Source of the DNA: a virus
Reading direction: 5' to 3' (one strand)
IMG/VR virus record: IMGVR_UViG_3300047301_000191
Length of the DNA stretch: 64,000 nt
Shown here in pieces: positions 12,080 through 57,708 of the stretch. Every line of letters starts with the position of its first letter. Positions within the stretch are counted from its first letter, which is position 1. Position numbers and translations under genes: made by a program. The notes below the pieces were generated by a model. The model ran no database searches. It was not told the origin of the DNA and worked only from the letters and a program-made list of their open reading frames with translations.

Positions 12080-13240
12080 ATGCGAAAACTTGCTTCAATC
12101 CAAAAGATCGTCAACATCTTCCCCATTCCAAATGCAGACCTGCTTGTTCTTGCGCAGGTAAACGATTGGCTTTCTATTGTGAAGAAGGGTGAGTTCCAGG
12201 TTGGCGAGCTTGTCGTCTACTGCGAAATTGATTCCGTTCTTCCAGAAATCCCTGCGTTTGAATTCATGAGGCAGCGAGATTATCGAGTCAATACAATTAA
12301 GCTGCGCGGCACACTGAGCCAAGGCCTCATTGTCGGTACATCGGTTCTGCCCGAAGGTACCGCGATTATTGAAGACTTTGATGTCAGCAGTATTCTTGGA
12401 GTCGTTAAGCCTATCCCTGGAAAGTCTCGCAAAGGAACACGGCAGCCTAATCGTCAAGGTCGACGGAGCAACTTCCCAAACTTCATTAAGAAAACTGACG
12501 AGACTCGTATTCAGTCCAAGTCATCTGTGCTTGATGAGCTGGAAGGTGTAGAGGTTTATGCTGCCGTCAAAATGGATGGTCAGTCATTGACGTTCGCAAA
12601 CTACGCAGCAAAAGAAGAAGATAATCCGTTTATTGTTTGCTCGCGCAACTTCAAGAAGGACCGAACGATTATCGTCAAGAGCCGAGACGAAAATGTTCCT
12701 GACCGGGAAGAGATCGACACTCATTGGCAAATCGCAGACCGACTAAAGATCTTTGAAAATCTTCCGTATGGTTTTGCAATGCAGGGAGAGTACCTTTCCG
12801 ACAAAATTCAAGGCAATCACCTAGGTGTAAAAGAGCCGGAATGGCACTGTTTTCAAGTGTTTGATATTGTGAGTCAAAAGTATCTGGACTACGCGAACTT
12901 CGTTCAGTTTTGTTTGACGATGAATATCAAGACAGTTCCAATTGAAAGAGTTTGGAAATTCTGTAAGCAAGAGTTCATAGATCTTCACGCAAAAACCTAT
13001 CCTGACTCCCTTTGTCAATCTGCAGTTGGCGGTCTGTTGCAGTTTGCAAGAGGCCGGTACAGCTCAGGCTTTCCGCGAGAAGGTCTAGTGATTCGCCCAA
13101 CTACAGAGCAATATAGCGAGTCTCTTAAAGGAAGGGCTTCATTCAAAGTCATTAATAATGACTTTCTACTGAAAGTAAAAGGCAAAGAAGATATTTATGA
13201 CGAGGATGGAGACGACGAACAGACTATAACTTCTGATTGA
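12080..13240 (+). CDS. ATP-dependent RNA ligase-family nucleotidyltransferase (KxDG motif I; Rnl2/DraRnl-like with N-terminal OB-like domain)
   Basis: ATG after AAAGGAAAA RBS; motif I AVKMDGQSL; ligase-like downstream motifs. Confidence 0.6.
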   Translation: MRKLASIQKIVNIFPIPNADLLVLAQVNDWLSIVKKGEFQVGELVVYCEIDSVLPEIPAFEFMRQRDYRVNTIKLRGTLSQGLIVGTSVLPEGTAIIEDFDVSSILGVVKPIPGKSRKGTRQPNRQGRRSNFPNFIKKTDETRIQSKSSVLDELEGVEVYAAVKMDGQSLTFANYAAKEEDNPFIVCSRNFKKDRTIIVKSRDENVPDREEIDTHWQIADRLKIFENLPYGFAMQGEYLSDKIQGNHLGVKEPEWHCFQVFDIVSQKYLDYANFVQFCLTMNIKTVPIERVWKFCKQEFIDLHAKTYPDSLCQSAVGGLLQFARGRYSSGFPREGLVIRPTTEQYSESLKGRASFKVINNDFLLKVKGKEDIYDEDGDDEQTITSD

Positions 13241-14070
13241 ACTACCTCCAATTTCCAGCCGATGACATTTAGCGATGCCTCTGTGGATTGATTGCCTTTT
13301 GAGTTTTTCAACAATGGTACCGTTATACCTGCATATCTTAATAATTTCGTGCGTGAAAGGTTTTTATCTTTGCAAAATTTGGCTAGCCCGTCATCTACAA
13401 AGAAGGTCTCTCCACTCGGCGAAGTCAGACAAAATCTTTTTGTGCCAGGATGATTTTTGCCAGAGCGCTTGTTAGGTGACTTCTTAATCGCATGCGACAA
13501 GGCCGCTCTTTTTTCTATCGTCCATTCGATTGGAGTTGCTTTCATCCTGGCGGTCATCCTTTGTCGGCACCCCTCTCTCTGTTCTGCTGAAAAAGTTTTG
13601 TTTTGATTGGCGGCACTAATTATGGCCTTTGCCTCTGGGGTATGCTTTCTGCCCCACATCCCATTGTCTTTTCCTTTCCTTGAGAGAAATGTTCGTGAGT
13701 TTTTACGAAAAAACTCTACATCTCTACTTTTCATAATAAAGCTATGCTGCATTTTGGTTCTACATTTGAACATGGCATAGTACGCCTGTATGATCTTTCT
13801 ATTTTGTGGAAGGATATAACAGAGAATTCTATGTGCGATTAAATGTTCGCGAGCAGTAAGTAAAACAATATTGAGTGTATCTTTAATTTGACAACTGTCG
13901 GTACACATTGATCTGGGTAAGATATGATGTTTTTCATAATAATCTCCATCTTGCTGGAGTGATTGTCGCAGAATTTGTTCATTCGCTCCTCGTTGAATGA
14001 TATTTTTATACCATGTGAAGTGTTTTTTGGACACAGCATTTTGTTGAATTATCAAGAGATAGTTGGTCAT
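13195..14070 (-). CDS. HNH homing endonuclease with NUMOD3-like DNA-binding motifs (free-standing)
   Basis: EKHHILPRS...NIVLLTAREHLIAH HNH core; GKDNGMWGRKHTPEAKAIIS NUMOD3-like; 3' end overlaps the RNA ligase 3' end convergently. Confidence 0.75.
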   Translation of the reverse strand: MTNYLLIIQQNAVSKKHFTWYKNIIQRGANEQILRQSLQQDGDYYEKHHILPRSMCTDSCQIKDTLNIVLLTAREHLIAHRILCYILPQNRKIIQAYYAMFKCRTKMQHSFIMKSRDVEFFRKNSRTFLSRKGKDNGMWGRKHTPEAKAIISAANQNKTFSAEQREGCRQRMTARMKATPIEWTIEKRAALSHAIKKSPNKRSGKNHPGTKRFCLTSPSGETFFVDDGLAKFCKDKNLSRTKLLRYAGITVPLLKNSKGNQSTEASLNVIGWKLEVVQSEVIVCSSSPSSS

Positions 14071-14110
14071 ATGTCTATGTTACAGCCAAGCCAACAGATA
14101 AAAAGCAATG

Positions 14111-14151: not shown

Positions 14152-14544
14152 ATGAAGCTTGACGTATGGGAGCAGGTACGAGATCTTACCATCCAGTTTG
14201 GCAAGCCTGCATTTGTCTCCAATGTAATTCATTTTGTCAATTCTGATGAGGCTAGCGCAAGTATTTTTCTTCACGGCAATGGAAGCGTTTGGGTAATTCA
14301 ATACACGAAAGGCAGCCATCCTTTCCAGTTCCATCGTAAAGATGCTCCTGCCGTCATAGAGTACTACGAGGATGGCCAGATAGCTGGAGAGTTTTGGCAC
14401 ATAAATAATCGACGTCATCGAGCAGATGGCCCTGCTGCCATATACTTTAACAAAGACGGCAGCATATCGTACAAAGAATACTGGATTGACGGAAAAAGAA
14501 AAGGAGACTCAAATGATCAAAGATCACCTCATTGTAATGGCTAA
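14152..14544 (+). CDS. MORN-variant repeat protein (family member 3)
   Basis: N-term MKLDVWEQVRDLTIQFGKP; repeats HRKDAPAVIEYYEDG, HRADGPAAIYFNKDG. Confidence 0.7.
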   Translation: MKLDVWEQVRDLTIQFGKPAFVSNVIHFVNSDEASASIFLHGNGSVWVIQYTKGSHPFQFHRKDAPAVIEYYEDGQIAGEFWHINNRRHRADGPAAIYFNKDGSISYKEYWIDGKRKGDSNDQRSPHCNG

Positions 14545-16885: not shown

Positions 16886-17129
16886 AGAAAATGCAATGGC
16901 GGAGGCAAAAATCGCAATAGACGCCTCAGTCCTTGATTTTAGAAACAAGGCAAACATCAGAATTGCAGCACTTGAAGCTGAAATGCAAACGAAGAAGCAA
17001 GAGCATAGCCAGTGTGAAGTAAATCTTCGAGAAGCAGAGTCTGCTCACAATAAAAAGATTGAAGCAGCACGACTCGTAATTGCAGAAACTGCAGCAATCT
17101 GTCGCCCGGCAAATCCAGCGATCCCTTAA
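16818..17129 (+). CDS. Hypothetical protein with N-terminal TM helix and coiled coil
   Basis: YLIVVGLLGVFINLV helix; possible frameshift partner of 16631..16885. Confidence 0.35.
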   Translation: MCYLIVVGLLGVFINLVRTEHYKENAMAEAKIAIDASVLDFRNKANIRIAALEAEMQTKKQEHSQCEVNLREAESAHNKKIEAARLVIAETAAICRPANPAIP

Positions 17130-17175
17130 GTATAATATAAAAGCAGAAGTCGAATGTCAACAAACCCAACCAAGG

Positions 17176-19440
17176 ATGGTAAGCGTGAAGTGTTTTAGTT
17201 TGTTTCTCCCTATTGTTTTTCTTTTTGCTGGATTTTCCCAAGCCAGCGAAGGCCATGATCGACGACATCGAGTCGATATCTGTCATAACAACCATGAGAT
17301 TAGGGTTGATGAGCACTCCGTCAAGGCTCATATGGCGCATGAAGATTGTCTTGGAGAATGCCCATGCGAAGCCCCAGAGCCAGAGTGCGAATGCGATGCA
17401 GATTGCACCGACAATCTTTTCTGCAGTGGTGATGATTTTTGCCGAGATGGAGTCTGTCATACTTTGCCACGAGAATGTCGCCCCACTGAAGTGTGTGATG
17501 AAGACAGGGATGCCTGTGTGGCTGTTCCGGAATGCAGTGAAGATTGCGATTGCGACAATGGTCTAGCTTGTGATGGTGCCGAATTTTGTGTTGGGGGCGT
17601 ATGCCTTGAAGGACAAAGCCCATGCCAAGATCAGCAAGTTTGCGATATTGAACATGATTTGTGCGTACCACCACCAGAATGCCTTGTCGACGAAGACTGC
17701 TCAGATAACATTTTCTGCAATGGTTACGAGCAATGTGTTGATGGAAGCTGTGCGGTAACTTTCCTTCCTTGTCTTGAAACCGAAGTGTGCTCAGAGGAGT
17801 TTGTTTATTGCACGCCTGTTTCTGGTGAAGGCGAGGGTGAGTCCAGTGAAGGAGAAGGGGAACCACCATGCCCTTCAGAGGGCGAGGGCGAAGTAGATCC
17901 CGCAGAGGGAGAAGGGGAAGGGGAGTCAAGCGAAGGCGAGGGCGAAGGTGAACCTTCCGAGGGCGAAGGCGAGCCAGAGCAACAAGAAAAATTGTTTATC
18001 TCTGGTAGCAGCGCATTCACTTGCCAGTCTTCTGATGGCACATCCTTTGCTATGTTCGCAATGCTCACTCCGTTTGCGAGTCTTTTTTCACGACGAAAGA
18101 AGGCAATTGCCAGCGCGGCTGTGATTGCAATGATTGCGATGGCGAACCCTGTCAAGGCAGAAGGACTTAACCGATCAGTTGGCGCAATCATCGAACATGA
18201 CACCGCCAATGTTCAATCTCCACTTCTGCTTGATGCTGGTACTATTCTGGTGGGCGGAAGTCTCGATTACTCTCATCAGCCTGTGGTTTTCCGCAATGAA
18301 GCTTTTGAAAATAAAATCACGGCAGTCGAACACCAGGGCACCGCTCGCCTTAACCTTGCATTTGGATTGACCGACAATCTTCAAATTGAAGGAAGTGTCC
18401 CGGCGTCATTGACTGTGGGAAAGGGTTTGGATCTAACAGGTCGTCCATCTGTTGGCATGGCTGACTCTTTGCTGGGGGCTCGACTGTCTCTGCTAGAAAA
18501 AGGTCAGCCACTGCAGGTTGCAATGTCTTTTCAGCTTGGTGTGCCGACGTCTTTTGCTTCATCTAATGGCCAACCAATCCTTGGAGAATCATTTTTAACT
18601 GGTCGCCCAGCCCTACTGGTTTCAGTTGGTGACGATATTGTTCGTGCGACTGGAAATGTAGGCTATACTTTTCGCAAAGAGAAATCGGTTGCTGATCTTA
18701 CTATTGGTGATGAGTTTGATGTGGGTGGAGCACTGAGTGTTCAATTAGTTCCAAAGGCTCTCTGGGTGACTGCTGATATTGCCAGCACTCTCAGCAGTCC
18801 ATCAATTCGTTCAAGCCGAATGATGTTTCCAACAGAAGCTAGTGTTGGCCTCCGTGGTGTATCTGGTCCACTGTTCGCGTCGGCGTCTGTTGGAACGGGA
18901 TTGGTTGCAGACGTAGGTACTCCTGATGTTCGAGCTACGCTAGCGGCAGGAATTACTTTTGATTTTGTTGAGCGACAAGTTCCTGCGAGCCATTGTCCTC
19001 CTGTAGTGGAACCAGCCGAACCAACTATTGCAAAGCCAACCGACAAGCCTGCCTTGGACTTAGTTGAAATCACTGATGATCGAATTGTCATTCTAAAGCC
19101 AGTGTTTTTCTATTACGATTCTTCCCGCATTCGCCCTGAAAGTATTGCGGTGCTAATGCAAGTTGCGGAAGCCATGGATCAACACCAGGAAATTCTAAGC
19201 CTTTCTGTTGAAGGTCATACAAGCTCTGAAGGGACAAGCCTATACAATCTTGACCTAAGTCAGCGTCGTGCAGCAGAAGTAAAGAGTTTTCTGGAGGCGT
19301 ATGGAATCAGTCCTTATCGTCTTCGCTCAATGGGATTTGGCGAGGTAGTGCCAATCGCTTCGAATGAAACGCAAGCAGGCCGCGAATCAAATCGTCGTGT
19401 AGAGTTTGTGATTCTAGAACGCAAGTTATTAAAGCAATAA
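17176..19440 (+). CDS. OmpA-family outer-membrane protein with N-terminal Cys-rich repeat domain and Gly-Glu low-complexity linker
   Basis: Signal peptide MVSVKCFSLFLPIVFLFAGFSQA; repeats of the C..G.C....C type; C-terminal OmpA/MotB domain (NLDLSQRRAAEVKSFL...GRESNRRVEFVILE). Confidence 0.7.
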   Translation: MVSVKCFSLFLPIVFLFAGFSQASEGHDRRHRVDICHNNHEIRVDEHSVKAHMAHEDCLGECPCEAPEPECECDADCTDNLFCSGDDFCRDGVCHTLPRECRPTEVCDEDRDACVAVPECSEDCDCDNGLACDGAEFCVGGVCLEGQSPCQDQQVCDIEHDLCVPPPECLVDEDCSDNIFCNGYEQCVDGSCAVTFLPCLETEVCSEEFVYCTPVSGEGEGESSEGEGEPPCPSEGEGEVDPAEGEGEGESSEGEGEGEPSEGEGEPEQQEKLFISGSSAFTCQSSDGTSFAMFAMLTPFASLFSRRKKAIASAAVIAMIAMANPVKAEGLNRSVGAIIEHDTANVQSPLLLDAGTILVGGSLDYSHQPVVFRNEAFENKITAVEHQGTARLNLAFGLTDNLQIEGSVPASLTVGKGLDLTGRPSVGMADSLLGARLSLLEKGQPLQVAMSFQLGVPTSFASSNGQPILGESFLTGRPALLVSVGDDIVRATGNVGYTFRKEKSVADLTIGDEFDVGGALSVQLVPKALWVTADIASTLSSPSIRSSRMMFPTEASVGLRGVSGPLFASASVGTGLVADVGTPDVRATLAAGITFDFVERQVPASHCPPVVEPAEPTIAKPTDKPALDLVEITDDRIVILKPVFFYYDSSRIRPESIAVLMQVAEAMDQHQEILSLSVEGHTSSEGTSLYNLDLSQRRAAEVKSFLEAYGISPYRLRSMGFGEVVPIASNETQAGRESNRRVEFVILERKLLKQ
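17824..17985 (+). repeat. In-frame low-complexity Gly-Glu repeat (GEGEGESSEGEGEP...)
   Basis: Reiterated ggcgagggcgaa units inside the OmpA-domain gene. Confidence 0.7.
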
Positions 19441-20442: not shown

Positions 20443-20862
20443 GTGGCGTTGGCGGTCAGCTCTGGCTGCCCTGTCGACTATGGTGTCAATTCAATCAGGT
20501 ACTCTCGCCAGCAGGCTTACTGTGGAACATCTGTTCATGCAGAAGTTGACTTGGTTAAGAGCCTAGGTGCTCGCGCCAAGAACGCAAAGATTTTTGTATA
20601 CCGTTTCAATTCCAGAGACACTAATGAATGTCGCGAGCCTCACTCCAGCATTCCCTGCAACCTTTGTCAGCACGCATTGAAAGAAGCTGGCATCAGCAGA
20701 GTCTACAGTCTCAATGAAGAGGGGGCGCTGGTTACGATGAAAAAGTCTGATCTTAATTCTTTTTCAGTGGATCCATTTTTGCTTTCTGCAAACATAGCAA
20801 AGGACAATCGTATGCTAACAAGTCAACTCAATAGACATCTGGTATTTGCCAATGGAACTTGA
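20443..20862 (+). CDS. Cytidine/deoxycytidylate deaminase-fold protein (zinc-binding HAE...PCxxC)
   Basis: GTG start; SVHAEVDLV and PCNLCQHAL motifs with 29-residue spacing. Confidence 0.6.
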   Translation: MALAVSSGCPVDYGVNSIRYSRQQAYCGTSVHAEVDLVKSLGARAKNAKIFVYRFNSRDTNECREPHSSIPCNLCQHALKEAGISRVYSLNEEGALVTMKKSDLNSFSVDPFLLSANIAKDNRMLTSQLNRHLVFANGT

Positions 20863-21246: not shown

Positions 21247-22398
21247 ATGACCTCCATGTACGATGACCTTTCCAATCTCATTGCCAATAACCGTCATGTT
21301 GAAACCCTTGAAGCCGTAGGAGTGGCCTGCAAGCAGTCAGGATCATTCCTGATTTTTGACTATGAGATTACTGCCAACTGGGATTCTCCCTTTCCTTTTA
21401 TCTGCCGTGGTTTGGTCGCCGACCAATCAGGTAAGATTGTTTGCGCTCCAATGAGGAAGTTTTGGAACGCGGGGGAAAGCAAGGCTGATAAGATCGATTG
21501 GTCAAAGGCCTTGGCATTTGAGAAGATGGACGGTTCAATGGTGAACCGTTGGTTTGCAAACGGCGAGTGGCATGTCTCCACCAGGTATAATCTGGGAGAA
21601 GGTCTTAACTCAAGGATGTCGGATATCCATTCAATTGAATGGCGCCAGCTCATCGATAAGTGTTTGGAAACGGTTGACCTTACTCTGCAGCCCCCTGAAG
21701 AAACTTGGACCTATGAGATCTGCTCTCAGTACAACCGAGTTGTCGTCAAGTATCAAAAGCCATTTGCGGTATTGCTTAGCCGCCGAGTGACCGCCACAGG
21801 CCAAGAAATCCCAATCACTGGAATGGCTGACGCCTGCCGGACCCACGACCTTTCCAACCTTGAGGCTGCACAGTCTTATGTCGGTGGATTTGATGGCGGG
21901 GAATTTGAAGGAGTCGTCGTCTATGACGGCGAGAACCGAATCAAGATTAAGAATCCTTCTTATGTCTGGTGGCATCACATCCGTGGAGAGGTAGGCGCAA
22001 CTTGGAAGAATATGCTTTCTGTTTACTTCAAGGATGAAGACAGTGAGTTCGTATCCCAGTTCCCCGACTTTGGAAAGCACTTTCAGGTCATTGACTATTT
22101 CTTCAAAGAACAAATGTCTGGTGCAGAAACCCTGTGGGATTCAATCAAGATTGCTCCTACTCGCAAAGAGTTTGCTGCGCTGGTAGAAGCGACCGGCACT
22201 TCAATGAAGGGTTGGCTTTTCAAGCGGTATGGTGGTGGAACTGACTTGAGTGCCGAGCAGTTTGTTCGTTCGCTGGATGAACCAACGAGGAACCGTTGGG
22301 CAGAAAATGCTGGACTCAAGGGCCGACTTGAGAAGATTGGTTCACTTGCCAAGTGGGGAGAAGATGCCCCAGAGACCCCCACCATGGAGGAGGAATGA
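21247..22398 (+). CDS. ATP-dependent RNA ligase, Rnl1-like
   Basis: Motif I EKMDGSM (KxDGS), motif IV FEGVVVY, motif V IKIKN; 383 aa. Confidence 0.7.
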   Translation: MTSMYDDLSNLIANNRHVETLEAVGVACKQSGSFLIFDYEITANWDSPFPFICRGLVADQSGKIVCAPMRKFWNAGESKADKIDWSKALAFEKMDGSMVNRWFANGEWHVSTRYNLGEGLNSRMSDIHSIEWRQLIDKCLETVDLTLQPPEETWTYEICSQYNRVVVKYQKPFAVLLSRRVTATGQEIPITGMADACRTHDLSNLEAAQSYVGGFDGGEFEGVVVYDGENRIKIKNPSYVWWHHIRGEVGATWKNMLSVYFKDEDSEFVSQFPDFGKHFQVIDYFFKEQMSGAETLWDSIKIAPTRKEFAALVEATGTSMKGWLFKRYGGGTDLSAEQFVRSLDEPTRNRWAENAGLKGRLEKIGSLAKWGEDAPETPTMEEE

Positions 22399-23232: not shown

Positions 23233-24027
23233 ATGAATCTACTTCAATGGCAGGAAATACAAAAATACACGCAAGAGTACGGACCTCCCAGTAAGATTGA
23301 AGGGCCTTCTCCGGGCGTTCCAAGTAACGCTTTGCGCTTTTCTCTTGAAGTGACGGACGGGCTGAAAGAAGTCATTTTAGTTTCCAACCCAAATGGGCAA
23401 ACTAAATTCATCACGCATTTTCTAAATAAAGAATTTCATCGTCCTATTGAGGAAGGCAGGGCCCTTATAGATTACCGAGAGGACGGCACTCTTAAGCGCT
23501 ATGAGTATTGGGAAAAAGGAAACAGGGTATTTATGCAAACAATGTATATCATGCGAGGCGTGCCTGGCTCAGGTAAAAGCTACATGGCAAAGCAAATCGC
23601 TACAGAGCAGTGCGGGACAATTTTCTCTACAGACGACTTCTTTATGAAGGGAGGAGAATATTTGTTTGACCCGGCTAAGCTCGGTTATTTTCATGAGCTT
23701 AACCGTCTCGCTGTCGAAAGGGCAACGGCGTCAAACGTCGAAACAATTGTTGTTGACAACACAATGACTACTCTTAAAGAAGCCAGGCAATACTGTCGAC
23801 TTGCCATGATAAATAACTACAAAGTCGTGTTTGTAGAACCAAAGACAGAGTGGGCTTTTAATGCAGAAGAGTGTGCCCGGCGAAATCAGCACGGAGTGCC
23901 TCTGGAGGCAATTGAAAGAATGCTTGCCAGATATGTTCCGGCAGAGAATTTCACCTTGGAAGCTTGCCTTGGCAAGAATTCCAATGGGGAAGATTGGACG
24001 GTCAAGGATGCCAAAGAAAGTACTTAG
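23233..24027 (+). CDS. Fusion protein: family N-terminal domain + one MORN-like repeat + P-loop kinase (polynucleotide-kinase/AAA_33-like)
   Basis: N-term MNLLQWQEIQKYTQEYGPP; Walker A GVPGSGKS; kinase-like remainder. Confidence 0.7.
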   Translation: MNLLQWQEIQKYTQEYGPPSKIEGPSPGVPSNALRFSLEVTDGLKEVILVSNPNGQTKFITHFLNKEFHRPIEEGRALIDYREDGTLKRYEYWEKGNRVFMQTMYIMRGVPGSGKSYMAKQIATEQCGTIFSTDDFFMKGGEYLFDPAKLGYFHELNRLAVERATASNVETIVVDNTMTTLKEARQYCRLAMINNYKVVFVEPKTEWAFNAEECARRNQHGVPLEAIERMLARYVPAENFTLEACLGKNSNGEDWTVKDAKEST

Positions 24028-24353: not shown

Positions 24354-24674
24354 GTGCTTCTTGTTGAATACGAAGAGATAGCGAAATGGCTACCCAAATA
24401 TGACGCCTTTTCATCCAATAACGATTTGTATATCTTCACACGCTGTGAAGAAGAAGCCACCAATCATATTCTTGCTTTAAAGTTTGACAAAGAAGGCCGG
24501 TTATCTCATAGAATGTTTTGGCGCAACAACCAAAGACATAGACCAGTAGAAGAAGGACCAGCCTATGAGAGTTGGCATAAAGGAGAATCTCATTACTGGG
24601 AGTACTGGCAATTCGGGATTGAATACAATGTCGACGGCACATTGCCTCCATCTATAATAGATCCAATTGTTTAG
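24354..24674 (+). CDS. MORN-variant family member (short, one repeat)
   Basis: GTG start; N-term LLVEYEEIAKWLPKYDAF; repeat HRPVEEGPAYESWHKG. Confidence 0.5.
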   Translation: MLLVEYEEIAKWLPKYDAFSSNNDLYIFTRCEEEATNHILALKFDKEGRLSHRMFWRNNQRHRPVEEGPAYESWHKGESHYWEYWQFGIEYNVDGTLPPSIIDPIV

Positions 24675-24687: not shown

Positions 24688-25026
24688 GTGCAACTTTATA
24701 TCTGGGAACACCTAAGCAAATTGATTGCCGACTACGGCAAATGTAGATACGATTACCTGGCTGGATATGGGAAGCATATATGGACATTTCATGTCAGCAG
24801 CATCTGTGTTTCCAGGTTAAAAATTCCAGCCTATGGCGATTACTATTTTGTAGATTATATCGAAGGAGGTGAAATTAGCAGAGATCCTGCAATGGGACCA
24901 GCCCATATCATCTTTGAAAAAAATAGTGGCAGGTATATAAATTGCGAATTCCGTAAGAATGGGCTTCTTGTCCCAGACCAAAGGGAAGCACAAATTCAAT
25001 TTCGTCGAAGTATTGTAAGGCCATAG
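24688..25026 (+). CDS. MORN-variant family member (divergent)
   Basis: GTG start; N-term LQLYIWEHLSKLIADYGK; one repeat GPAHIIFEKNSG. Confidence 0.45.
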   Translation: MQLYIWEHLSKLIADYGKCRYDYLAGYGKHIWTFHVSSICVSRLKIPAYGDYYFVDYIEGGEISRDPAMGPAHIIFEKNSGRYINCEFRKNGLLVPDQREAQIQFRRSIVRP

Positions 25027-25496: not shown

Positions 25497-25538
25497 TTGT
25501 TTCAATGTAACATTCAGTCTAAACCTACGAGGTCAAAC

Positions 25539-35395: not shown

Positions 35396-35743
35396 ATGAA
35401 GCTAGATCTTATGGCTGTGGTTATGGAGACTGCAATGCCAAAAGTTTTTAACCGATATCATCGTACTGCAGGTGCAGATGCAATTTATGTAGGTCGTCCA
35501 ACTAAATGGGGAAACCCATATACGCATCAAGCAGATAAGGCGACGCTCGCCGACTATGTTGTAGCTTCAAGAGAAGAGGCAGTCGATATGTACAGAGAGT
35601 ACATAATGGCAAACCCAATCCTCCTAAAGGCATGTCAAGAAGAGCTAAAAGGAAAAGATCTAGTTTGTTTCTGCGCGCCCAAAGCATGCCATGCCGATAT
35701 TCTAATTGAAATAGCCAATCAAACTCCAAAGGAGACATCGTGA
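35396..35743 (+). CDS. DUF4326-domain protein
   Basis: YVGRPTKWGNPY ... LKGKDLVCFCAPKACHADIL matches the DUF4326 signature. Confidence 0.65.
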   Translation: MKLDLMAVVMETAMPKVFNRYHRTAGADAIYVGRPTKWGNPYTHQADKATLADYVVASREEAVDMYREYIMANPILLKACQEELKGKDLVCFCAPKACHADILIEIANQTPKETS

Positions 35744-35855: not shown

Positions 35856-36893
35856 ATGAGCAAGCTACTAACAAGAGATGAATTCAGGCGCGCAGTATTT
35901 GCGCGCGACAATAATCTTTGCGTTGTTTGCAAAGAGCCGGCTGACGCTGCCCATCACATCATTGAGCGAAGACTCTTTGTTGATGGAGGTTATTACCTTG
36001 ACAACGGAGCTTCGCTTTGTCCAGCTTGCCATATTCGTGCAGAAGAAACAACTCTTTCAGTAGAGGATGTCAGGTCGGCTGCCGAGATAAGAAACAAAGT
36101 AATTCCACCTCATCTATATGATGACACAGAGTACACGAAGTGGGGAGACGTAATCCTTAGCAATGGCGACAGGCTCCGCGGTGAATTGTTTGATGACGCC
36201 TCTGTGCAAAAGATATTGGCGCAAGGCAAAGTATTAAATCTCTATCGCCATTACGTAAAATATCCGCGCACGAATCATTTTCATTTTTCTCCTGGAATGA
36301 ACTCAGATGATCGCGCACTGCCGGATGAGTCTTGCTTTGAAGGCAAAGATGTCGTTGTAACAGAGAAACTCGACGGAGAGTCCTGTACTCAATATTCTGA
36401 CCACATCCATGCGCGATCAGTTGAATCAAAAAATCACTTATCTAGAAACGCAGTAAAGGTAATCCATGGCGCGATTGCCCATGACATCCCAAATGGTTGG
36501 AGAATTTGCGGTGAGAATCTCTGGGCAAAGCACTCAATCTATTACGACAATTTGAAATCGTACTTTATGGTATTTTCGATTTGGAATGAAAAGAACATTT
36601 GCCTGTCATGGAAGGAGACTTTGGAATGGTGCGAGTTGCTCGGCCTAACTCCAGTGCCAGTACTATATGAAGGCAAGTTTGACATCAATGAGCTTAAAAA
36701 GATTGAGAAGAGTCTTGACTTAACAAAGTCAGAAAGCTACGTTTGCCGAGACAGTGGTAGCTTTCATTTCTCTAAGTTTCCTGTGAGTGTTGCTAAATTC
36801 GTTCGAGCCGGCCACGTTCAAACAAGTCAGCACTGGATAAACCAAAAGCTGACTCCTAATTTACTAGCAGACAGAAACATTAAAGTAGGCTAA
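35856..36893 (+). CDS. HNH nuclease domain fused to an RNA-ligase-like nucleotidyltransferase domain
   Basis: HNH: CVVCKEPADAAHHIIERRL...NGASLCPACH; ligase motif I VVTEKLDGESC; later ICGENLWAKHS and KFVRAGH. Confidence 0.6.
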   Translation: MSKLLTRDEFRRAVFARDNNLCVVCKEPADAAHHIIERRLFVDGGYYLDNGASLCPACHIRAEETTLSVEDVRSAAEIRNKVIPPHLYDDTEYTKWGDVILSNGDRLRGELFDDASVQKILAQGKVLNLYRHYVKYPRTNHFHFSPGMNSDDRALPDESCFEGKDVVVTEKLDGESCTQYSDHIHARSVESKNHLSRNAVKVIHGAIAHDIPNGWRICGENLWAKHSIYYDNLKSYFMVFSIWNEKNICLSWKETLEWCELLGLTPVPVLYEGKFDINELKKIEKSLDLTKSESYVCRDSGSFHFSKFPVSVAKFVRAGHVQTSQHWINQKLTPNLLADRNIKVG

Positions 36894-38332: not shown

Positions 38333-39472
38333 ATGATGGACTTCGATCTATATAGTCATACCAGCCTACTTTGCCGTTCGGGCAGCAGGCTGTACGGAAT
38401 CAATAACGCTGATTCCGACATCGATGTGCAGGGCTGCGCAGTACCGCCGGTTAAGTACTGGCTTTCAAACCTAGAGTTTGAACAGTCAAACGATGCGGCA
38501 AAGCTACAAGACGCACGATTCATGGCATTGTTTACTGACGATGAACGAAAGATCATCGCAGCGACTAAGCTTGAAGGAACAATCTACGGCGTAAAGAAGT
38601 ACATTCATCTGGCGGGAGAAAGCAATCCCAATGTGCTTGATGGTGTTTGGGCTCCAGATAGCGCAGTCCTTCGTTGCGACCGAATCGGAGAATTGATTCG
38701 AGAGAATCAAAAATTGTTCCTTACCCTGTCGGCACTTCCTCGGTTTGTTGGTTACTCAGTTGGCCAGCTTAAAAAGATGAACTTGCACAGGCAGTATTTT
38801 GCCAATCCTAGGCTTGTCAAACCAGAGCGAGCCAACTACAATCTCAACGCCCCAGACGATTATACACCTAATGAATTGGACGCGCTGCGAGCCGCAATCA
38901 AAAAGCAGGTAGATTCTTGGCAGCCATCTTTCACCGACAAAATGAGTCAGGTGGATATCATTGCAATCAAAGATCACTTTAGCCGAACTCTTGAAGAGAT
39001 GTCAATCGCCCAGGAAGATCGATACCTACTGGCGGAACGTCGACTCGGGGTGCCCGGCTCACTAAAGGAATACTTTGAGAAGGAGCGCCGCTTCCAATTG
39101 GATATGGATGCATTCAAAGATTACCAGAAGTGGCTTAAGGATCGCAACCCAGCGCGTGCGGCCTTGGAAGCAAAGGTTGGATACGACACTAAGTTTGCCG
39201 TGCATCTGATTCGTTTGCTTCGTGCTTGCTGTGATATCTTGCGCACTGGAACCTATATGGTTGATCGTACAAATATTGACGCAGAGCTGCTACGAGAAAT
39301 CCGAGCTGGCAACTTTAAGTATGAAGATATTCTTGCCATGAGTGATGCACTAAAGGTAGAGGCTTTTGAGCTTGGAAAGTTAAATCCTAAAGGCTTGCCA
39401 CAGCAGCCACAGCATGACAAAATCAATGATCTTCTGGTCAATATTGCAAAGAGTAGCTTTGGATGGAACTAG
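38333..39472 (+). CDS. Pol-beta-superfamily nucleotidyltransferase (predicted; PF10127-like)
   Basis: ATG after GGAGG RBS; NTase motif GSRLYGINNADSDIDVQG. Confidence 0.6.
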   Translation: MMDFDLYSHTSLLCRSGSRLYGINNADSDIDVQGCAVPPVKYWLSNLEFEQSNDAAKLQDARFMALFTDDERKIIAATKLEGTIYGVKKYIHLAGESNPNVLDGVWAPDSAVLRCDRIGELIRENQKLFLTLSALPRFVGYSVGQLKKMNLHRQYFANPRLVKPERANYNLNAPDDYTPNELDALRAAIKKQVDSWQPSFTDKMSQVDIIAIKDHFSRTLEEMSIAQEDRYLLAERRLGVPGSLKEYFEKERRFQLDMDAFKDYQKWLKDRNPARAALEAKVGYDTKFAVHLIRLLRACCDILRTGTYMVDRTNIDAELLREIRAGNFKYEDILAMSDALKVEAFELGKLNPKGLPQQPQHDKINDLLVNIAKSSFGWN

Positions 39473-44587: not shown

Positions 44588-44588
44588 C

Positions 44589-48748: not shown

Positions 48749-49288
48749 ATGAACATCTTTGCGAGAATTCTTTTCATTCCACTCAACTTATTGTTGCTGC
48801 TTGTTGACAAGATTGTCTTTCCATTCCTGCAATCCAAACCACACTTTTGGCAAGTGACCGCTAAGAAGAATCAAATCTACCTAGAGATAGAGAGAAACCA
48901 TTTCCTGTTTTCTCGTCTTTTTGATGAAGATGTATTTTCTCCTGTTGCCCGGCAGGAACTACTGTCTGCCTCTAAGGCCGCAAACCAAACGGCGGCAGTA
49001 CTCCATCTTTACTCTGCGTATGCGGCTCTCTCGGAATTTGCAAGGAATTGCGAAGCTGCAGGATTTGAGCTTAACGCACAGTGGATTGAAAGACTTAACT
49101 CCGCCAATCAACACCTCTTTGAGCGAGTATTGGCCAAGTTTTCAAAGTATGATCAAACTCTAATTTACCATAATTTGCCCAGACTTTATTCTGCCACTTC
49201 ACGAGCGATTCATCGCACAGAATTCAGTGGCGTAGTTACCGTAGGGAATACCGATGAGCTTGACACATTCCAACTCACTGCAGAATAA
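48749..49288 (+). CDS. Hypothetical protein with N-terminal TM helix
   Basis: ATG after GAGGAATACA RBS. Confidence 0.45.
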   Translation: MNIFARILFIPLNLLLLLVDKIVFPFLQSKPHFWQVTAKKNQIYLEIERNHFLFSRLFDEDVFSPVARQELLSASKAANQTAAVLHLYSAYAALSEFARNCEAAGFELNAQWIERLNSANQHLFERVLAKFSKYDQTLIYHNLPRLYSATSRAIHRTEFSGVVTVGNTDELDTFQLTAE

Positions 49289-49808
49289 GCAGGACAACAG
49301 GCCAATCATTGTTCTTGATTTTGATGGAACAATGAACCCTGTCCCATTTTATGGACAAGAAGACCACGACTTTGTTTTTGATATTAGCACATGGGTAAAT
49401 ACAACAAATGAAGATGGATCGGCTTGGCGATACAAGGTGAATCTTTCCACAGAGATGGCCGCTGAAATAATTCAGCTTGGCACAGTCATGTGGCTTACGT
49501 CATGGGTCCGTTGGGCCGATGATGCAAATACAGTTATTGCGCCATTGCTTGGGTGGGGCCGCTTGCCTATTGTTCCCTTTGAAAAGGATCGGCCAGATTG
49601 GAAGCATCATGCAATGCAGCAATTGCTAGCGGATGACGGCCCACCAGTTGTTTGGATCGATGACGAAGCAGAACAAATTATTGAAGAGGGAAGAAATCGA
49701 ATTCCATTGGATCCTTATGATAGGCTGATTGTGTGCGCCCCTTGGACCGACTATGGAATGCGCAGGTCAGACTTTAATCAAATAACCTCTGGCCTCAAGG
49801 AAAAGTAA
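49254..49808 (+). CDS. HAD-superfamily phosphatase (DxDGT motif; candidate polynucleotide 3'-phosphatase)
   Basis: Motif I IIVLDFDGTM near the N-term; WIDDEAE later. Confidence 0.55.
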   Translation: MSLTHSNSLQNKQDNRPIIVLDFDGTMNPVPFYGQEDHDFVFDISTWVNTTNEDGSAWRYKVNLSTEMAAEIIQLGTVMWLTSWVRWADDANTVIAPLLGWGRLPIVPFEKDRPDWKHHAMQQLLADDGPPVVWIDDEAEQIIEEGRNRIPLDPYDRLIVCAPWTDYGMRRSDFNQITSGLKEK

Positions 49809-53792: not shown

Positions 53793-54170
53793 ATGAATCT
53801 GAATCAATGGGAAGTGATCGCTGAATTAGCTGAACAATACTCTTCCCCTAAGATTACTCATGGATCCTTCGTCTTTCTTAAAGAAGAAAAATCAGCGATT
53901 GTCTGTTTTTATGAGTGTGGTCAAATCAAATCTTGTACCTACTCCAACAGAGTAGGTTATCATCGCCCCCATCAGGAAGGCCCTGCAAATCAGATTTTCT
54001 ATAGGGATGGAAATATCAGCTGCACCCAGTACTTCTTAGATGGACTACTTTATCGGCCACCTCATTTGGGGCCTGCCTATAAGAGTCTATATCAGGATGG
54101 ACGAGTTTTGCTCGCAGAGTACTGGCAGTATGGGAAGAAGTTCGCGCCTCTACAATCGGCGCCACTCTAA
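53793..54170 (+). CDS. MORN-variant repeat protein
   Basis: N-term MNLNQWEVIAELAEQYSSP; repeats YHRPHQEGPANQIFYRDG, YRPPHLGPAYKSLYQDG. Confidence 0.7.
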   Translation: MNLNQWEVIAELAEQYSSPKITHGSFVFLKEEKSAIVCFYECGQIKSCTYSNRVGYHRPHQEGPANQIFYRDGNISCTQYFLDGLLYRPPHLGPAYKSLYQDGRVLLAEYWQYGKKFAPLQSAPL

Positions 54171-54183
54171 GTGGGGGGTGACT

Positions 54184-54594
54184 GTGAATATCGATAGTTG
54201 GCAAAAGATACGAGAGCTTACTGAAAAGTACGGACCTCCCAAAAGTGACGGGCGAAAGGGAAACGGATTAACATTCGAGAAATCAAACACTAGCGTTTGG
54301 GTGGGCCTTCGTCCATCTGGTTCGATTTCATATATCGAGTACAGTGAATCAAGTAGCGAACACTCTATTTTAATGCTTTCCAGACCACATCTAGATGGAC
54401 CTGCTGTAGAATCATTCCATGACAATGGCAAAGTCCATTGCAGATACCATTACAAAAGTTCGTTGCTGCACAGGCCTACTGATCTAGGACCAGCCTACGT
54501 AAACTACGGTTATGATGGGGCGCTCATGGGATGTTCATACTATCATATGGGAATTTCGCAGCAAAAAGTGGATGCAATTAGCCTAAGGAGTTGA
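54184..54594 (+). CDS. MORN-variant repeat protein
   Basis: GTG start; N-term VNIDSWQKIRELTEKYGPP; repeats SRPHLDGPAVESFHDNG, HRPTDLGPAYVNYGYDG. Confidence 0.65.
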   Translation: MNIDSWQKIRELTEKYGPPKSDGRKGNGLTFEKSNTSVWVGLRPSGSISYIEYSESSSEHSILMLSRPHLDGPAVESFHDNGKVHCRYHYKSSLLHRPTDLGPAYVNYGYDGALMGCSYYHMGISQQKVDAISLRS

Positions 54595-55715: not shown

Positions 55716-56462
55716 ATGAGACAAATAGTACTTACTGATCTCCATGGCTGCTACGATGAAATGCGCCGCCTGCTGGATCAAATCAAATTCGACAGCACCG
55801 ATACGATTATTGGTGCGTCTGACGCCGTAGACAAAGGCCCTCATTCTGCTGAAGTTGTGCGTTTTCTTGCGGATCTAGGTTGCCAAGTCAGGCAAGTCCG
55901 AGGCAATCATGAGATGAAGTTCTTGCGCTTTGTAAAGGCTTATCGAAAAGATTCGTCTAAAGCTATGGAGCGCCGTGGCTCTCGCGACATGGAGCGCACA
56001 ATGAATGGACTCAGGGAATCTGATCTTGAATGGCTTGCGAGTGGAGCGACGTGGGCGGATGTCAAGGGACACAACGCAATCGTAGTTCATGCTGGTATTG
56101 AGCCCGCCATGAAGCGACTGCCGGAACAATTTCCTGAAGACAAAAAGAAGCTCGAATCTTGCTCGGCGCTGTGGTACACTCGTTTCGTCAAGAACGGGCG
56201 GATGGTCAAGCTTGGTGAAGAAGACCCAGAATGTCAATTCTGGGCGGATGTTTATGACGGCAGGTACGGCACCGTCTACTATGGTCACCAGCCATTTATG
56301 CAGGCTGACCCTCGCATCTCAGAGCACGCCGTAGGGCTCGATCTTGGTGGAGTTATGGGTGGGCAACTTGCTGCCGCTATCTTCTACGAAGACAGGGTTG
56401 AGTTTGATAAAGTGGCTTGTCAAGAATATGTTTCGCCAAAAGCCGCGTATGGTGACGAATGA
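55716..56462 (+). CDS. Calcineurin-like metallophosphoesterase (PPP-family phosphatase, lambda-PPase/ApaH-like)
   Basis: Motifs TDLHGC (GDxHG), SDAVDKGP (GDxxDRG), RGNHE (GNHE). Confidence 0.8.
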   Translation: MRQIVLTDLHGCYDEMRRLLDQIKFDSTDTIIGASDAVDKGPHSAEVVRFLADLGCQVRQVRGNHEMKFLRFVKAYRKDSSKAMERRGSRDMERTMNGLRESDLEWLASGATWADVKGHNAIVVHAGIEPAMKRLPEQFPEDKKKLESCSALWYTRFVKNGRMVKLGEEDPECQFWADVYDGRYGTVYYGHQPFMQADPRISEHAVGLDLGGVMGGQLAAAIFYEDRVEFDKVACQEYVSPKAAYGDE

Positions 56463-56851
56463 ACTTGGATGCGACCGCAAGAATCCTGTCAACAGGCCTT
56501 TGGGTTAAGTCAAAAGAAAAGCCACCAAGCCCAGTGTCACAGTGGTGGGATGATATTGCTGAGCGTCGATACCGGCTAAATATCGTGAATTTCCAAACAG
56601 TTTACATTGTCTCTGTGTCGGATATGAGGGCTGAAGATTTTTGGCGGGGCGAAGGCAGACTGTTTTACGTCGCATTTGATAATGAAGCCCAGAGTGCCGA
56701 GGATGCTCTATTTGTAAACCTAAAGGAGGATGCTCTACTTGTAAACCTAAAGAGTTCCTTCGATGAAGCCACTGTTCTAGCCGCCTACAATCGTTTCATT
56801 CCCAGTGACTTGCGTGAATACGCACCATTTTGTGACAAGAGGAAAGTATGA
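56459..56851 (+). CDS. Hypothetical protein containing a 27-nt tandem duplication
   Basis: ATGA overlap on both sides (operon with phosphoesterase and Thg1-like gene). Confidence 0.45.
   Translation: MNLDATARILSTGLWVKSKEKPPSPVSQWWDDIAERRYRLNIVNFQTVYIVSVSDMRAEDFWRGEGRLFYVAFDNEAQSAEDALFVNLKEDALLVNLKSSFDEATVLAAYNRFIPSDLREYAPFCDKRKV
56699..56752 (+). repeat. 27-bp direct tandem duplication (gaggatgctctaYttgtaaacctaaag x2), in-frame (EDALFVNLK EDALLVNLK)
   Basis: Two adjacent copies differing at one position. Confidence 0.8.
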
Positions 56852-57708
56852 CGACAACCACCACAGAAGCAACTGCGCGCCTGCCTTCTCTTGAAGAACA
56901 ATTCCAAGAATTGGAGCGACTTGAAGACCAGCGCATTCCGTCCTCTCAAGGTTTCATCACCAGGCTTGATGGTCGAGGTTTCTCAAAGCTAACGCAGAAA
57001 CTTGATAAGCCATTCGATTCCGACTTCAATCGAGCAATGAGGGCTGCGGCAGTATCTTTGTTTGTAGACTTTAACCCGCTGCTCATCCACACAGGCAGTG
57101 ACGAAATTTCTGCATACTTTCCTGCTCAAAAAGGAGAAACAGGGGAACACCCATTTAATGGAAGGATTCAAAAGATTCTTTCGGTTGTAGCTGGCGTCGT
57201 TTCCACTGCCTTTAATCAAGTCACATCGAGCCAAGAGTTTAAGGCAAAGCTGACTGATCGTGCAGTATTTGATGCACGAATCGTAAAGGTTACTCCCGAG
57301 TTGGCTGCTGCGTATTTTGTTTGGCGAGAGCAAAACACAAAGAGAAATTCTGTTCAAATGGCTTGTCGCACCGTTATGTCGCACAAGGCAATGAATGGGC
57401 TGAATCAAACGCAGCAGTTTCTTGCGCTTCAAGAATACGGCATTGATTGGAACAATTATGACCGCATGAATAAGCGCGGAATCTTGCTACAAAAGCAATC
57501 CAATCAGCTTCGGCTCACAGCACAAGATATCTCACAATTGCCCGAGAGGCATGATCTGCGCGTGGCGGCAAGTTCATCAGAGGGTGGCGACGTTGTCATT
57601 GTTCGCAACGAAGTTGTGGAGCTTGACTTGCCCCCATTGGCTTCAGTTGCAAATCTGTATGAATGCCTTTTTGAGAAGGCAATCCCGGAGCTAAAAGATG
57701 ACAAATGA
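56848..57708 (+). CDS. Thg1-like protein (tRNA-His guanylyltransferase family, 3'-5' nucleotide-addition/tRNA 5'-end repair enzyme)
   Basis: FITRLDGRGFSKLT, TGSDEISAYFP, FNGRIQKILSVVAGVVSTAFN, VFDARIV, YFVWREQNTKRNSVQMACRTV, EYGIDWNNYDRMNKRGILL align with conserved Thg1 blocks. Confidence 0.8.
   Translation: MTTTTTEATARLPSLEEQFQELERLEDQRIPSSQGFITRLDGRGFSKLTQKLDKPFDSDFNRAMRAAAVSLFVDFNPLLIHTGSDEISAYFPAQKGETGEHPFNGRIQKILSVVAGVVSTAFNQVTSSQEFKAKLTDRAVFDARIVKVTPELAAAYFVWREQNTKRNSVQMACRTVMSHKAMNGLNQTQQFLALQEYGIDWNNYDRMNKRGILLQKQSNQLRLTAQDISQLPERHDLRVAASSSEGGDVVIVRNEVVELDLPPLASVANLYECLFEKAIPELKDDK

Follow-up and report, generated by a model that had tools for sequence, protein, structure and literature searches.

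A candidate RNA end-repair gene set in the genome of an uncultured large phage

The stretch of DNA considered here, IMG/VR record IMGVR_UViG_3300047301_000191, is 64,000 nucleotides (nt) in length and is referred to, as a whole, as the window; its source is an uncultured large phage. Coding in the window is almost wholly on the plus strand, with approximately 130 open reading frames (ORFs), most of them small, and a GC content of 42-50%. Between positions 12080 and 57708 lie eight genes that an earlier note on this DNA had interpreted as a dispersed toolkit for the healing and sealing of RNA ends. Cleavage of tRNA is a common last-line defence of bacteria, and how large phages survive such cleavage is partly known. 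The eight ORFs were found to be real, and all are encoded on the plus strand:

12080..13240, plus strand: Rnl5-type (NgrRnl/DraRnl-like) ATP-dependent RNA ligase with an N-terminal OB and a nucleotidyltransferase domain (Pfam, PHROGs, PDB, motifs)
21247..22398, plus strand: Rnl1-type RNA ligase of the T4 gp63 family (Pfam, PHROGs, PDB, motifs)
23233..24027, plus strand: two-domain protein, a MORN-like paralog domain (residues 1-100) followed by an AAA_33 P-loop kinase (residues 101-264) (Pfam, PHROGs, hidden Markov model (HMM))
35856..36893, plus strand: HNH-ligase, an HNH domain (residues ~1-70) fused to a PF09414 nucleotidyltransferase domain (~135-340) (Pfam, PHROGs, orthologs)
38333..39472, plus strand: RNA-ligase-associated Pol-beta (RlaP) nucleotidyltransferase (PF10127, phrog_388)
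49254..49808, plus strand: standalone HAD phosphatase without a cap, from the HAD_SAK_2 ('Swiss Army Knife', PF18143) family (Pfam at family level, fold)
55716..56462, plus strand: PPP-family binuclear metallophosphoesterase of the ApaH/PrpE/lambda-PP/Pnkp clade (Pfam, PDB, motifs)
56848..57708, plus strand: Thg1-like protein (TLP) of the type that repairs 5' ends in bacteria, a 3'-5' RNA polymerase (PF04446, phrog_4717, PDB)

Enzyme families and catalytic residues

Profile searches with Pfam and PHROGs placed each ORF in the family that had been proposed for it, the HAD protein, taken by itself, falling under its cut-off, and the catalytic residues that the earlier note had singled out (the ligase lysine of KxDG, the Walker A motif, DFDGT and the TLP carboxylates) are all kept. 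As judged from sequence, the set comprises ATP-dependent RNA ligases from three different families together with an RlaP and a bacterial-type TLP, each with an intact active site. The ligases belong, as had been predicted, to RNA-ligase families (Rnl5, Rnl1 and HNH-fused PF09414) and not to the DNA ligases, with profile scores above the curated cut-offs. The title of the earlier note had counted four ligase-family proteins, against three in its own list, and three is the correct number; a fourth was not found by Pfam in any ORF of at least 70 amino acids, searched as concatenated queries, or by PHROGs among the larger or neighbouring ORFs.

The Rnl5-type ligase is matched by the PHA02142 OB profile over residues 4-85 (8e-27), by RNA_ligase PF09414 over residues 158-358 (1e-17) and by phrog_968 (2e-61). 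Its best solved relative is NgrRnl of Naegleria (5cot; E 7e-29, residues 1-271), and its match to TIGR02306 RNA_lig_DRB0094 (3e-40) scores 138 bits against 151, under the equivalog cut-off. Motif I is represented by K164 in KMDG, aligned to VKLDG of NgrRnl, and motifs IV and V by EGLVIR (334-339) and FKV (355-357); the C-terminal tail of the protein is acidic. The 3' end of the gene is overlapped by a minus-strand gene (13195-14070) for a homing/HNH-type endonuclease-like protein (phrog_655, 8e-31), an arrangement that suggests a possible mobile-element insertion beside the ligase. Another homing/HNH-type endonuclease-like gene is found on the minus strand at 41173-42117 (phrog_22677, with a weak match to REase_MTES_1575).

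With the Rnl1-type ligase, PF09511 RNA_lig_T4_1 is matched over profile positions 2-227 of 227 (5e-12; 46.7 bits against a cut-off of 28.3), phrog_562 over residues 1-344 (4e-41), and the structures of T4 Rnl1 with an E-value of 5e-6. Its motifs KMDG (K93), CRG (R54), FEG (220-222) and KIK (233-235) pair with KEDG, CRG, IEG and KIK of T4 Rnl1, respectively. As to the C-terminal tRNA-specificity domain, phrog_562 reaches residue 344, the PDB and Pfam alignments end near residue 250, and TIGR02308 scores far under its equivalog cut-off. The label of a mere 'tail-fibre attachment' gene, carried over in PHROGs from T4 gp63, was rejected for 21247-22398. Two genes upstream, the ORF at 20443-20862 has a zinc motif, HAE...PCxxC, that weakly resembles those of cytidine/deoxycytidylate deaminases (Pfam 7e-4, phrog_18355 7e-7).

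The HNH-ligase is matched by RNA_ligase (1e-27), by HNH (3e-5) and, over its full length, by phrog_24030 (8e-123). Full-length orthologs with 42-56% identity are encoded by Salicola phage SCTP-2, Ralstonia phage RsoM2USA, the Caulobacter CcrBL9-group phages, Acinetobacter phage ME3 and the 485-kb huge phage LR745208, the identity being 50-56% for all of these except ME3. Among six orthologs, K171, D173 and G174 (the KxDG motif), E220, E293 and K314 of the ligase domain are invariant, as are C22, C25, H33, H34, N50, C55 and H59 of the HNH domain.

The Pol-beta nucleotidyltransferase to which a possible rebuilding of 3' ends had been attributed proved to be an RlaP (PF10127 7e-16, 59.2 bits against a cut-off of 23; phrog_388 9e-43 over residues 8-374). 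The Pol-beta signature GS...DSDID is found at residues 17-31 (GSRLYGINNADSDID), and the protein has 35% identity over 98% of its length to an ORF of huge phage LR745208; a PDB sequence search returned no informative match. Bacterial RlaPs from Pseudomonas add one to two nucleoside monophosphates (NMPs) to the 3'-OH of RNA, favour mimics of cleaved tRNA and restore the aminoacylation of over-damaged tRNA, while DNA is not used (PMC12776372), which accords with the activity that had been suggested.

The TLP, of 286 residues, is matched by PF04446 Thg1 (6e-26) and phrog_4717 (1e-49). The family assignment of the earlier note was borne out: the best solved relative is the TLP of B. thuringiensis (BtTLP; 4kgk, 2e-22), a bacterial 5'-end-repair enzyme, followed by an archaeal TLP (7e-11), compared to 1e-6 for Candida Thg1 and 3e-4 for 5xox of the eukaryotic type. 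Among its carboxylates, D41 pairs with D30 of BtTLP, D85 with D75 and E86 with E76, and R39 and E23 pair with R28 and E12; a set of 22 homologs keeps these five residues, and N167, without exception. An ORF of LR745208 has 35% identity to the protein, and a relative with 93% identity is also on record. Bacterial and archaeal enzymes of the BtTLP type perform templated repair of 5'-truncated tRNAs (PMC3061083, PMC3701042, PMC4820378), whereas the original role of the Thg1 family is the maturation of tRNA-His (PMC3061083). Literature searches revealed no characterised phage TLP.

The kinase domain is matched by AAA_33 over residues 101-240 (1e-13), by phrog_2071 and by phrog_505 'polynucleotide kinase' (2e-13). 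It carries the Walker A motif GVPGSGKS at residues 109-116 (GxPGSGKS is family-invariant), S132-T133-D134, which is invariant in 25 homologs, and D175-N176-T177, likewise invariant in the family. It is a candidate 5'-OH polynucleotide kinase, with RNA as its putative substrate. That its N-terminus belongs to the MORN-like family of the window was confirmed (8e-15 against an HMM of 11 standalone paralogs). This fusion was found in the window and in one relative with 91% identity; the other homologs are standalone kinases of approximately 150 residues.

Two phosphatases complete the set. The HAD protein matches HAD_SAK_2 with an E-value of 5e-4 and 20.8 bits, below the gathering score of 27.5. 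At the family level, 46 of its 51 aligned homologs match HAD_SAK_2 (best E 5e-12) and no other family, and because of this the protein is considered a divergent member of HAD_SAK_2. Its catalytic motifs (DxD, Thr/Ser, Lys and DD), DFDGT among them, are present and hold in the family alignment, and the AlphaFold model built from that alignment, which was used in place of a single-sequence model with a pLDDT of 34, has the Rossmann-like HAD fold. A PDB sequence search gave no match. The PPP enzyme is matched by Metallophos (4e-13) and by phrog_246, which PHROGs labels 'NinI-like serine-threonine phosphatase'. Its solved relatives are the ApaH-like enzyme of T. brucei (2qjc, 8e-20), ApaH (4e-12), the phosphatase domain of C. 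thermocellum Pnkp (4j6o, 1e-9) and lambda phosphatase (3e-7), and the NCBIfam profiles that match it, all far under their cut-offs, are those for ApaH (NF001204, 1e-23), PrpE and bacterial Pnkp (TIGR04075, 2e-14). The motifs DLH (8-10), DAVDKG (36-41), GNHE (63-66), HAG (125-127) and GH (190-191) are present, of which DAVDKG departs from the GDxxDRG form in having Ser for the preceding Gly and Lys for Arg.

Gene order, rarity and genomic neighbourhoods

The set is arranged as three loose same-strand groups and two solitary genes (those for the Rnl5-type ligase and the HAD protein), and not as one operon. The Rnl1 and kinase genes lie 0.8 kb apart; the RlaP gene is located 1.4 kb downstream of that for the HNH-ligase, on the same strand; and the PPP and TLP genes are joined through a small ORF. 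Two further genes take part in these groups:

35396..35743, plus strand: DUF4326 protein, directly upstream of the HNH-ligase (PF14216 8e-21, phrog_464)
56459..56851, plus strand: ORF130, of 130 residues, between the PPP enzyme and the TLP, with ATGA overlaps at both ends

The start/stop overlaps couple PPP, ORF130 and TLP translationally. ORF130 has no match in Pfam, PHROGs or NCBIfam, and its assignment to a known domain was rejected; homologous sequences were limited to an identical one, on a JGI contig of 72 kb, and a relative with 78% identity, recorded with the same longest contig (2874 bp) as the 93% relative of the TLP. DUF4326 proteins are predicted to be rhodanese-phosphatase-like and to act on the ribose-linked terminal phosphates of ADP-ribose derivatives (Aravind and co-workers, PMC9503650). 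The DUF4326 protein could be an accessory phosphatase, as a further end-healing or NAD-linked component, and its place in the set is uncertain; the adjacency of its gene to the HNH-ligase gene is not kept in five other phages encoding an HNH-ligase.

Each family of the set is rare among phages, occurring in at most 1% of 50,697 phage records (INPHARED): matches were found in 162 of them for the TLP, 33 for the HNH-ligase, 335 for Rnl5, 464 for Rnl1, 514 for the kinase, 385 for RlaP, 16 for the PPP enzyme and none for the HAD protein. When the eight proteins were searched as one concatenated query, 893 matching places were obtained in 798 records, and the best 60 of these 798 held at most four matching places each, compared to seven detectable in the window. 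The presence of eight rare families together within 45 kb therefore points to selection for a common theme rather than to background.

Associations between members of these families are also seen in other phages. Kinase homologs adjoin Rnl1 genes in the huge phage LR756511, in Pseudomonas phages Bitten and Pyxpy, and in Aeromonas phage phiA009. Of the contigs encoding near-relatives of the window's TLP, L016 has the gene for an AAA_33 kinase overlapping that for the TLP; on L018, an AAA_33 kinase gene is separated from a Thg1 gene by one other, and an Rnl5-type ligase is encoded 2.3 kb from the TLP; and on L019, genes for RtcB and then RlaP lie 2.6 kb from the TLP. These pairs of AAA_33 kinase and TLP parallel the PPP–ORF130–TLP unit of the window. 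A DUF7277/DUF7275 protein encoded at 3963-4787 of the window has a homolog with 35% identity on L018, a contig of an unrelated phage, where its gene (9670-10452) lies 0.9 kb downstream of the TLP, between the TLP and the Rnl5-type ligase, and it may be a further recurrent neighbour of repair genes.

The lineage of the phage is without close sequenced relatives. Megablast of 19 kb against the INPHARED records gave no relative at the nucleotide level, neither the HAD protein nor the TLP had a close relative in scans of IMG/VR, and an exact-protein look-up of the TLP returned no match. Near-identical sequences were limited to short contigs of the same phage or of a strain with approximately 90% identity; the same phage is represented by a 100%-identical contig of 8.7 kb in SRR29999181 and by the 72-kb JGI contig. 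The best protein matches of the window's genes are to jumbo and huge phages. A true syntenic relative was found in L015 (contig SRR407182_6510, 155.7 kb), with identities of 66% for the PPP enzyme, 48% for the TLP, 76% for the MoxR-type AAA protein and 83% for the DUF2201 protein. There, the gene for the PPP ortholog precedes that for the TLP at the corresponding position, in the order Metallophos–x–x–Thg1. At the position of the window's HAD gene, L015 encodes (2367-3978) an MnmA-like tRNA 2-thiouridylase (tRNA_Me_trans) and an HD_4-domain protein, and this slot seems, to judge from L015, to hold exchangeable tRNA- or nucleotide-related genes.

Three tRNA genes were found in the window, for Gly-UCC, Thr-UGU and Ala-UGC. 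All appear complete, with full acceptor stems and an encoded 3' CCA; a tRNA-His was not seen in the window, nor was any tRNA that is split or carries an intron. The tRNA-Thr(UGU) gene (6759-6842) is 84 nt long, with a variable arm unusually long for a Thr tRNA. A gene that had not been listed in the earlier note, 1.1 kb downstream of that for tRNA-Ala (32769-33233), encodes a YqeY/GatB-like protein (PF09424 3e-31; phrog_1460 'tRNA amidotransferase').

The MORN-like family to which the N-terminus of the kinase belongs has 13 members in the window, of approximately 110-180 residues:

9524-9898, 11162-11647, 14152-14544, 24354-24674, 24688-25026, 25080-25496: MORN-like paralogs
23233-23532: MORN-like paralog forming the N-terminus of the kinase
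28606-28992, 28920-29372, 32353-32760, 34522-34923, 54040-54594, 60008-60448: MORN-like paralogs, continued

These proteins share a conserved N-terminus, 'M.L..W..I..L..EYGPP', followed by MORN-like repeats of the form 'HR..GPA.E...nG', for which Pfam gave a single weak match, to MORN_2. The family is also expanded in L015 (17-20.4 kb). Three further sets of tandem paralogs, at 43505-44933, 29620-30613 and 58295-59209, comprise four, three and two copies, respectively, of ORFs of approximately 85-150 residues that were without any database match. The window also carries several genes of cellular type, which are not usual in phages, namely those for a full-length ClpB/ClpA-like double-AAA chaperone (25497-27887), a 786-residue protein with a C-terminal OmpA domain (17080-19440), an SPFH/Band-7 protein (5831-6682), and a pair composed of a MoxR-type AAA protein and a DUF2201 VWA/metallopeptidase (61258-63625).

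Proposed function and its alternatives

The best reading of the set is taken to be the healing and sealing of RNA ends, given that the ligases belong to RNA-ligase families, that they are accompanied by an RlaP and a BtTLP-like TLP, and that the residues named above are conserved. The eight genes are proposed to cover, together, every step in the end repair of RNA, mainly tRNA, as a loosely clustered same-strand repertoire, and to this proposal we assign a probability of roughly 65%. From sequence comparison, such a role appears well supported by family identity and partly supported by the neighbourhoods seen in other phages. Of the earlier interpretation, what has stood are the enzyme families and their catalytic residues; RNA is a presumptive substrate in the case of the kinase, the PPP enzyme, the HAD protein and the HNH-ligase.

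Repair would begin where an anticodon nuclease or other tRNase of the host leaves ends with a 2',3'-cyclic phosphate or 3'-phosphate and a 5'-OH. The removal of 3' phosphates is performed by a PPP domain in bacterial Pnkp and by a HAD domain in T4 Pnkp. In the window phage, the PPP enzyme, the HAD_SAK phosphatase or both would strip the 3'-terminal phosphate, and the AAA_33 kinase would phosphorylate the 5'-OH. Where a nucleotide had been lost, RlaP would add one to two NMPs to the 3'-OH, and where the 5' end of the acceptor stem had been trimmed, the TLP would refill it on the template of the 3' strand, for which it would need a 5'-phosphate provided by the kinase or the PPP enzyme. For the final sealing, Rnl1 would presumably join breaks in tRNA loops and Rnl5 nicks in duplex RNA, while the HNH-fused enzyme might take a third class of break or couple ligation with the cutting of DNA or RNA. 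The substrates, the order of action and the role in counter-defence are those that we infer for this scheme. The occurrence of several ligases with healing enzymes suggests resistance to several host RNases.

A number of observations weigh against so complete a scheme, and several of them speak for a mixed set in which a core (Rnl1 with the kinase, RlaP and perhaps Rnl5) repairs RNA and the rest is an unrelated by-product of the gene content of a big phage; we hold this to be unlikely while taking it seriously. The PPP enzyme would then act as an Np4N hydrolase of the ApaH kind, as a decapping enzyme or as a protein Ser/Thr phosphatase, and it is indeed at least as near to Ap4A hydrolases (ApaH, PrpE) and protein phosphatases as to Pnkp, with its best matches among ApaH-like proteins (2qjc and NF001204) and a PHROG label of serine-threonine phosphatase. 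The HAD protein would be a nucleotidase or a protein phosphatase: the closest folds to its model are protein phosphatases, no phage homolog was found in INPHARED, and the contexts of its homologs (a dCMP deaminase neighbour, and fusions to YAcAr and thioesterase domains) are nucleotide-related and include none of RNA repair, nor does a repair gene adjoin it in the window or at the homolog locus P0002. The HNH-ligase could be a DNA-directed or selfish nuclease-ligase; PDB sequence searches gave it no solved relative, and we know of no characterised member of its clade. For the TLP, another role at RNA 5' ends would have to be assumed. The kinase, although assigned here to the core, is a generic AAA_33 protein whose NCBIfam match is a weak one to gluconokinase and whose PDB similarity to Pnkp1 (4xrp) is likewise weak (E 0.004-0.013). 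The DxxR arginine of PNK is not evident in it, with no Arg three residues past D134 or D135, and its closest standalone homologs, of 50-54% identity on contigs of 371 and 46 kb, are without ligase neighbours. Finally, the eight genes are dispersed over 45 kb among approximately 100 unrelated small ORFs, with homing-endonuclease genes nearby, and the scans that returned three ligases found no gene for 2H, cRec, RtcB, CCA-adding or PTH proteins in the window.

The neighbourhoods of viral TLP genes bear on the same point. IMG/VR contains at least 572 viral stretches with a TLP gene. In a first small sample, repair neighbours were present at five of six loci, whereas in a wider sample of 80 IMG/VR loci with 5-kb flanks, in which neighbours were detected by local iterative HMMs, a gene for RlaP, a ligase, a kinase or a CCA enzyme lay within 5 kb at only 12, leaving 68 of the 80 without a repair neighbour. 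Among the 149 ORFs of at least 170 residues nearest to 68 viral TLP genes, RlaP (5), RNA_ligase (4) and Metallophos_2 (3) were among the families most often recognized by Pfam, and UDG (5), PRPP synthetase (5) and DNA ligase (3) recurred just as often. The link between TLPs and repair genes is thus real at a minority of loci.

Other evidence favours the common repair function over a mixed set. The HAD_SAK_2 and RlaP families were themselves defined through their association with RNA-repair genes. A PPP-type phosphatase is the healing domain of bacterial Pnkp, and the enzyme of the window aligns with it from end to end (4j6o, TIGR04075). The same enzyme is coupled translationally to the TLP, in an order kept in L015, a relative in which the two proteins are 66% and 48% identical to those of the window. 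The joint presence of eight families that are individually rare is, moreover, hard to explain without common selection. Favourable to the repair function too are the three tRNAs encoded in the window and an independent study of jumbo phages that came to the same conclusion on function (PMC7824862).

A more specific proposal, to which we give rather little credence, would see in the PPP–ORF130–TLP unit a phage pathway devoted to the rebuilding of tRNA 5' ends, in which the phosphoesterase or the kinase would set the state of the 5'-phosphate and acceptor stems would be refilled by the TLP. Such a pathway would imply a hitherto unrecognised class of host defence that trims or modifies the 5' ends of tRNAs. 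In a similar vein, the MORN-like fusion of the kinase could be a targeting module, which might guide repair enzymes to damaged tRNA or to a factor of the host.

The enzymes may instead serve to mature and maintain the phage's own tRNAs and RNAs, through 5'-end completion or G-1 addition by the TLP, 3' touch-up by RlaP and the joining of fragments, rather than counter-defence; this we consider decidedly improbable. The window does hold three tRNA genes, one with an atypically long variable arm, and a YqeY/GatB-like gene after that for tRNA-Ala, L015 has an MnmA-like gene in the HAD position, and the maturation of tRNA-His was the founding function of Thg1 (PMC3061083). However, the three tRNA genes are complete with an encoded CCA, none in the window is for tRNA-His, split or interrupted by an intron, and the TLP is nearest to the repair type of BtTLP and not to the G-1-adding Thg1. 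A kinase and phosphatases, furthermore, are needed for breaks of the nuclease type and not for processing by RNases P and Z. That the ORFs encode DNA ligases or DNA-repair enzymes, or owe their assignments to chance motif matches, is extremely improbable and was rejected on the RNA-ligase profile and structure matches: PF09414-type ligases and AAA_33 kinases can act on DNA ends in some systems and HNH domains normally cut DNA, but no ORF matches a DNA-ligase family, all three ligases exceed the RNA-ligase cut-offs and two have solved RNA ligases among their matches, DNA is not a substrate of RlaP (PMC12776372), and E-values down to 1e-123 exclude chance.

If the activities proposed for the full set are confirmed, the phage could show how many kinds of tRNA damage one virus can reverse, whether the repair of 5' ends by a 3'-5' polymerase belongs to counter-defence, and which ligase takes which break. 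To our knowledge, no phage representative of the TLP, HNH-fused ligase or SAK-HAD classes has been studied. No new principle is involved, as accounts of both the concept and its gene families appeared between 2016 and 2021; the window provides an unusually complete, naturally co-occurring candidate repair set from a lineage without a cultured relative.

Comparison with known systems

The RNA-repair repertoire of jumbo phages has been catalogued in an account that reportedly builds on work by Burroughs and Aravind in 2016. Iyer, Anantharaman, Krishnan, Burroughs and Aravind described in 2021 that jumbo phages encode Rnl1 and Rnl2 ligases, some of the latter with an N-terminal HNH domain (PMC7824862, section 3.4.9). 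The several ligases of each phage were judged 'probably not redundant' and were interpreted as specialists for RNA broken by distinct RNase effectors, and they were found together with polynucleotide kinases congruent with the ligases, standalone SAK-HADs, occasional calcineurin-like phosphatases, RlaPs mirroring the ligases, sporadic Thg1 proteins and phage tRNAs (PMC7824862). The window presents the same families, the same logic and the same idea of several ligases. It differs in that neither INPHARED nor IMG/VR yielded a near relative of its phage, in joining more families than any of the 60 best-matching records, in the fusion of its kinase to a lineage-specific MORN-like domain and the coupling of PPP and TLP, and in that no RtcB, 2H, cRec, CCA enzyme or PTH2 was seen in it. 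Since this repertoire was catalogued for jumbo phages in 2021, and a similar cluster exists in Vibrio phage D69, the set is not a new system, and the novelty claimed in the earlier note was overstated (PMC7824862). It is a very complete example of a known phage tRNA-repair kit, from a lineage without a close sequenced relative. Its new specifics seem to be the kinase-MORN-like fusion, the PPP–ORF130–TLP unit with an order kept in L015, and the presence of three ligase families with RlaP and TLP in a short region.

The cluster of Vibrio phages D69, D148 and D181 (OZ195729.1, 69.7-81.8 kb) resembles the window in being composed of loose same-strand repair genes amid small ORFs with no assigned function. 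It encodes a phosphoesterase, an HNH endonuclease, a polynucleotide kinase, Rnl1, a Thg1-like protein and an RlaP-like nucleotidyltransferase, of which Rnl1, TLP and RlaP have 26-30% identity to those of the window, whereas the kinase and the phosphoesterase have no detectable similarity to their counterparts. Unlike the window, the cluster spans 12 kb only and includes a CCA-adding enzyme, and the one ligase detected in it is Rnl1, with no homolog of Rnl5, of the HNH-ligase fusion or of HAD_SAK.

T4, in which Pnkp and Rnl1 reverse the damage caused by PrrC, shares with the window a 5'-kinase, a 3'-phosphatase and an Rnl1-family ligase whose motifs are kept. The comparison drawn in the earlier note, that T4 needs only Pnk and Rnl1, was overstated, for T4 also encodes Rnl2 and, like the window, an RlaP, NrdC.11 (PMC12776372). 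The kinase and HAD phosphatase of T4 form one polypeptide, whereas in the window their genes are separated by 25 kb and the two proteins fall into other subfamilies (AAA_33 N4BP2-like and HAD_SAK_2). Beyond T4, the window adds the Rnl5-type ligase, the HNH-ligase, the PPP phosphatase and the TLP.

In bacterial Pnkp, the kinase, PPP phosphatase and ligase are domains of one protein, as in Pnkp/Hen1 of Clostridium thermocellum and Pnkp1 of Capnocytophaga. The PPP enzyme of the window aligns end to end with the phosphatase domain, its kinase matches Pnkp1 (4xrp) weakly, and phrog_8238 'RNA ligase' matches both. Unlike with bacterial Pnkp, these domains are encoded by separate genes 32 kb apart and no Hen1 methyltransferase accompanies them, and the PPP enzyme is closer to ApaH-like enzymes than to Pnkp.

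With BtTLP, the TLP of the window shares the metal-binding carboxylates and the Arg and Glu that bind nucleoside triphosphates, and by analogy it would be expected to catalyse the templated 3'-5' fill-in of 5'-truncated tRNA; unlike BtTLP, it is phage-encoded and extends by approximately 60 C-terminal residues past the BtTLP match. The Rnl5-type ligase, for its part, scores under the NCBIfam equivalog cut-off and differs from the enzymes of Naegleria gruberi and Deinococcus radiodurans in its acidic C-terminal tail and in the minus-strand homing endonuclease gene that overlaps its 3' end, while the architecture of OB and nucleotidyltransferase domains and the lysine of KxDG are the same in all three.

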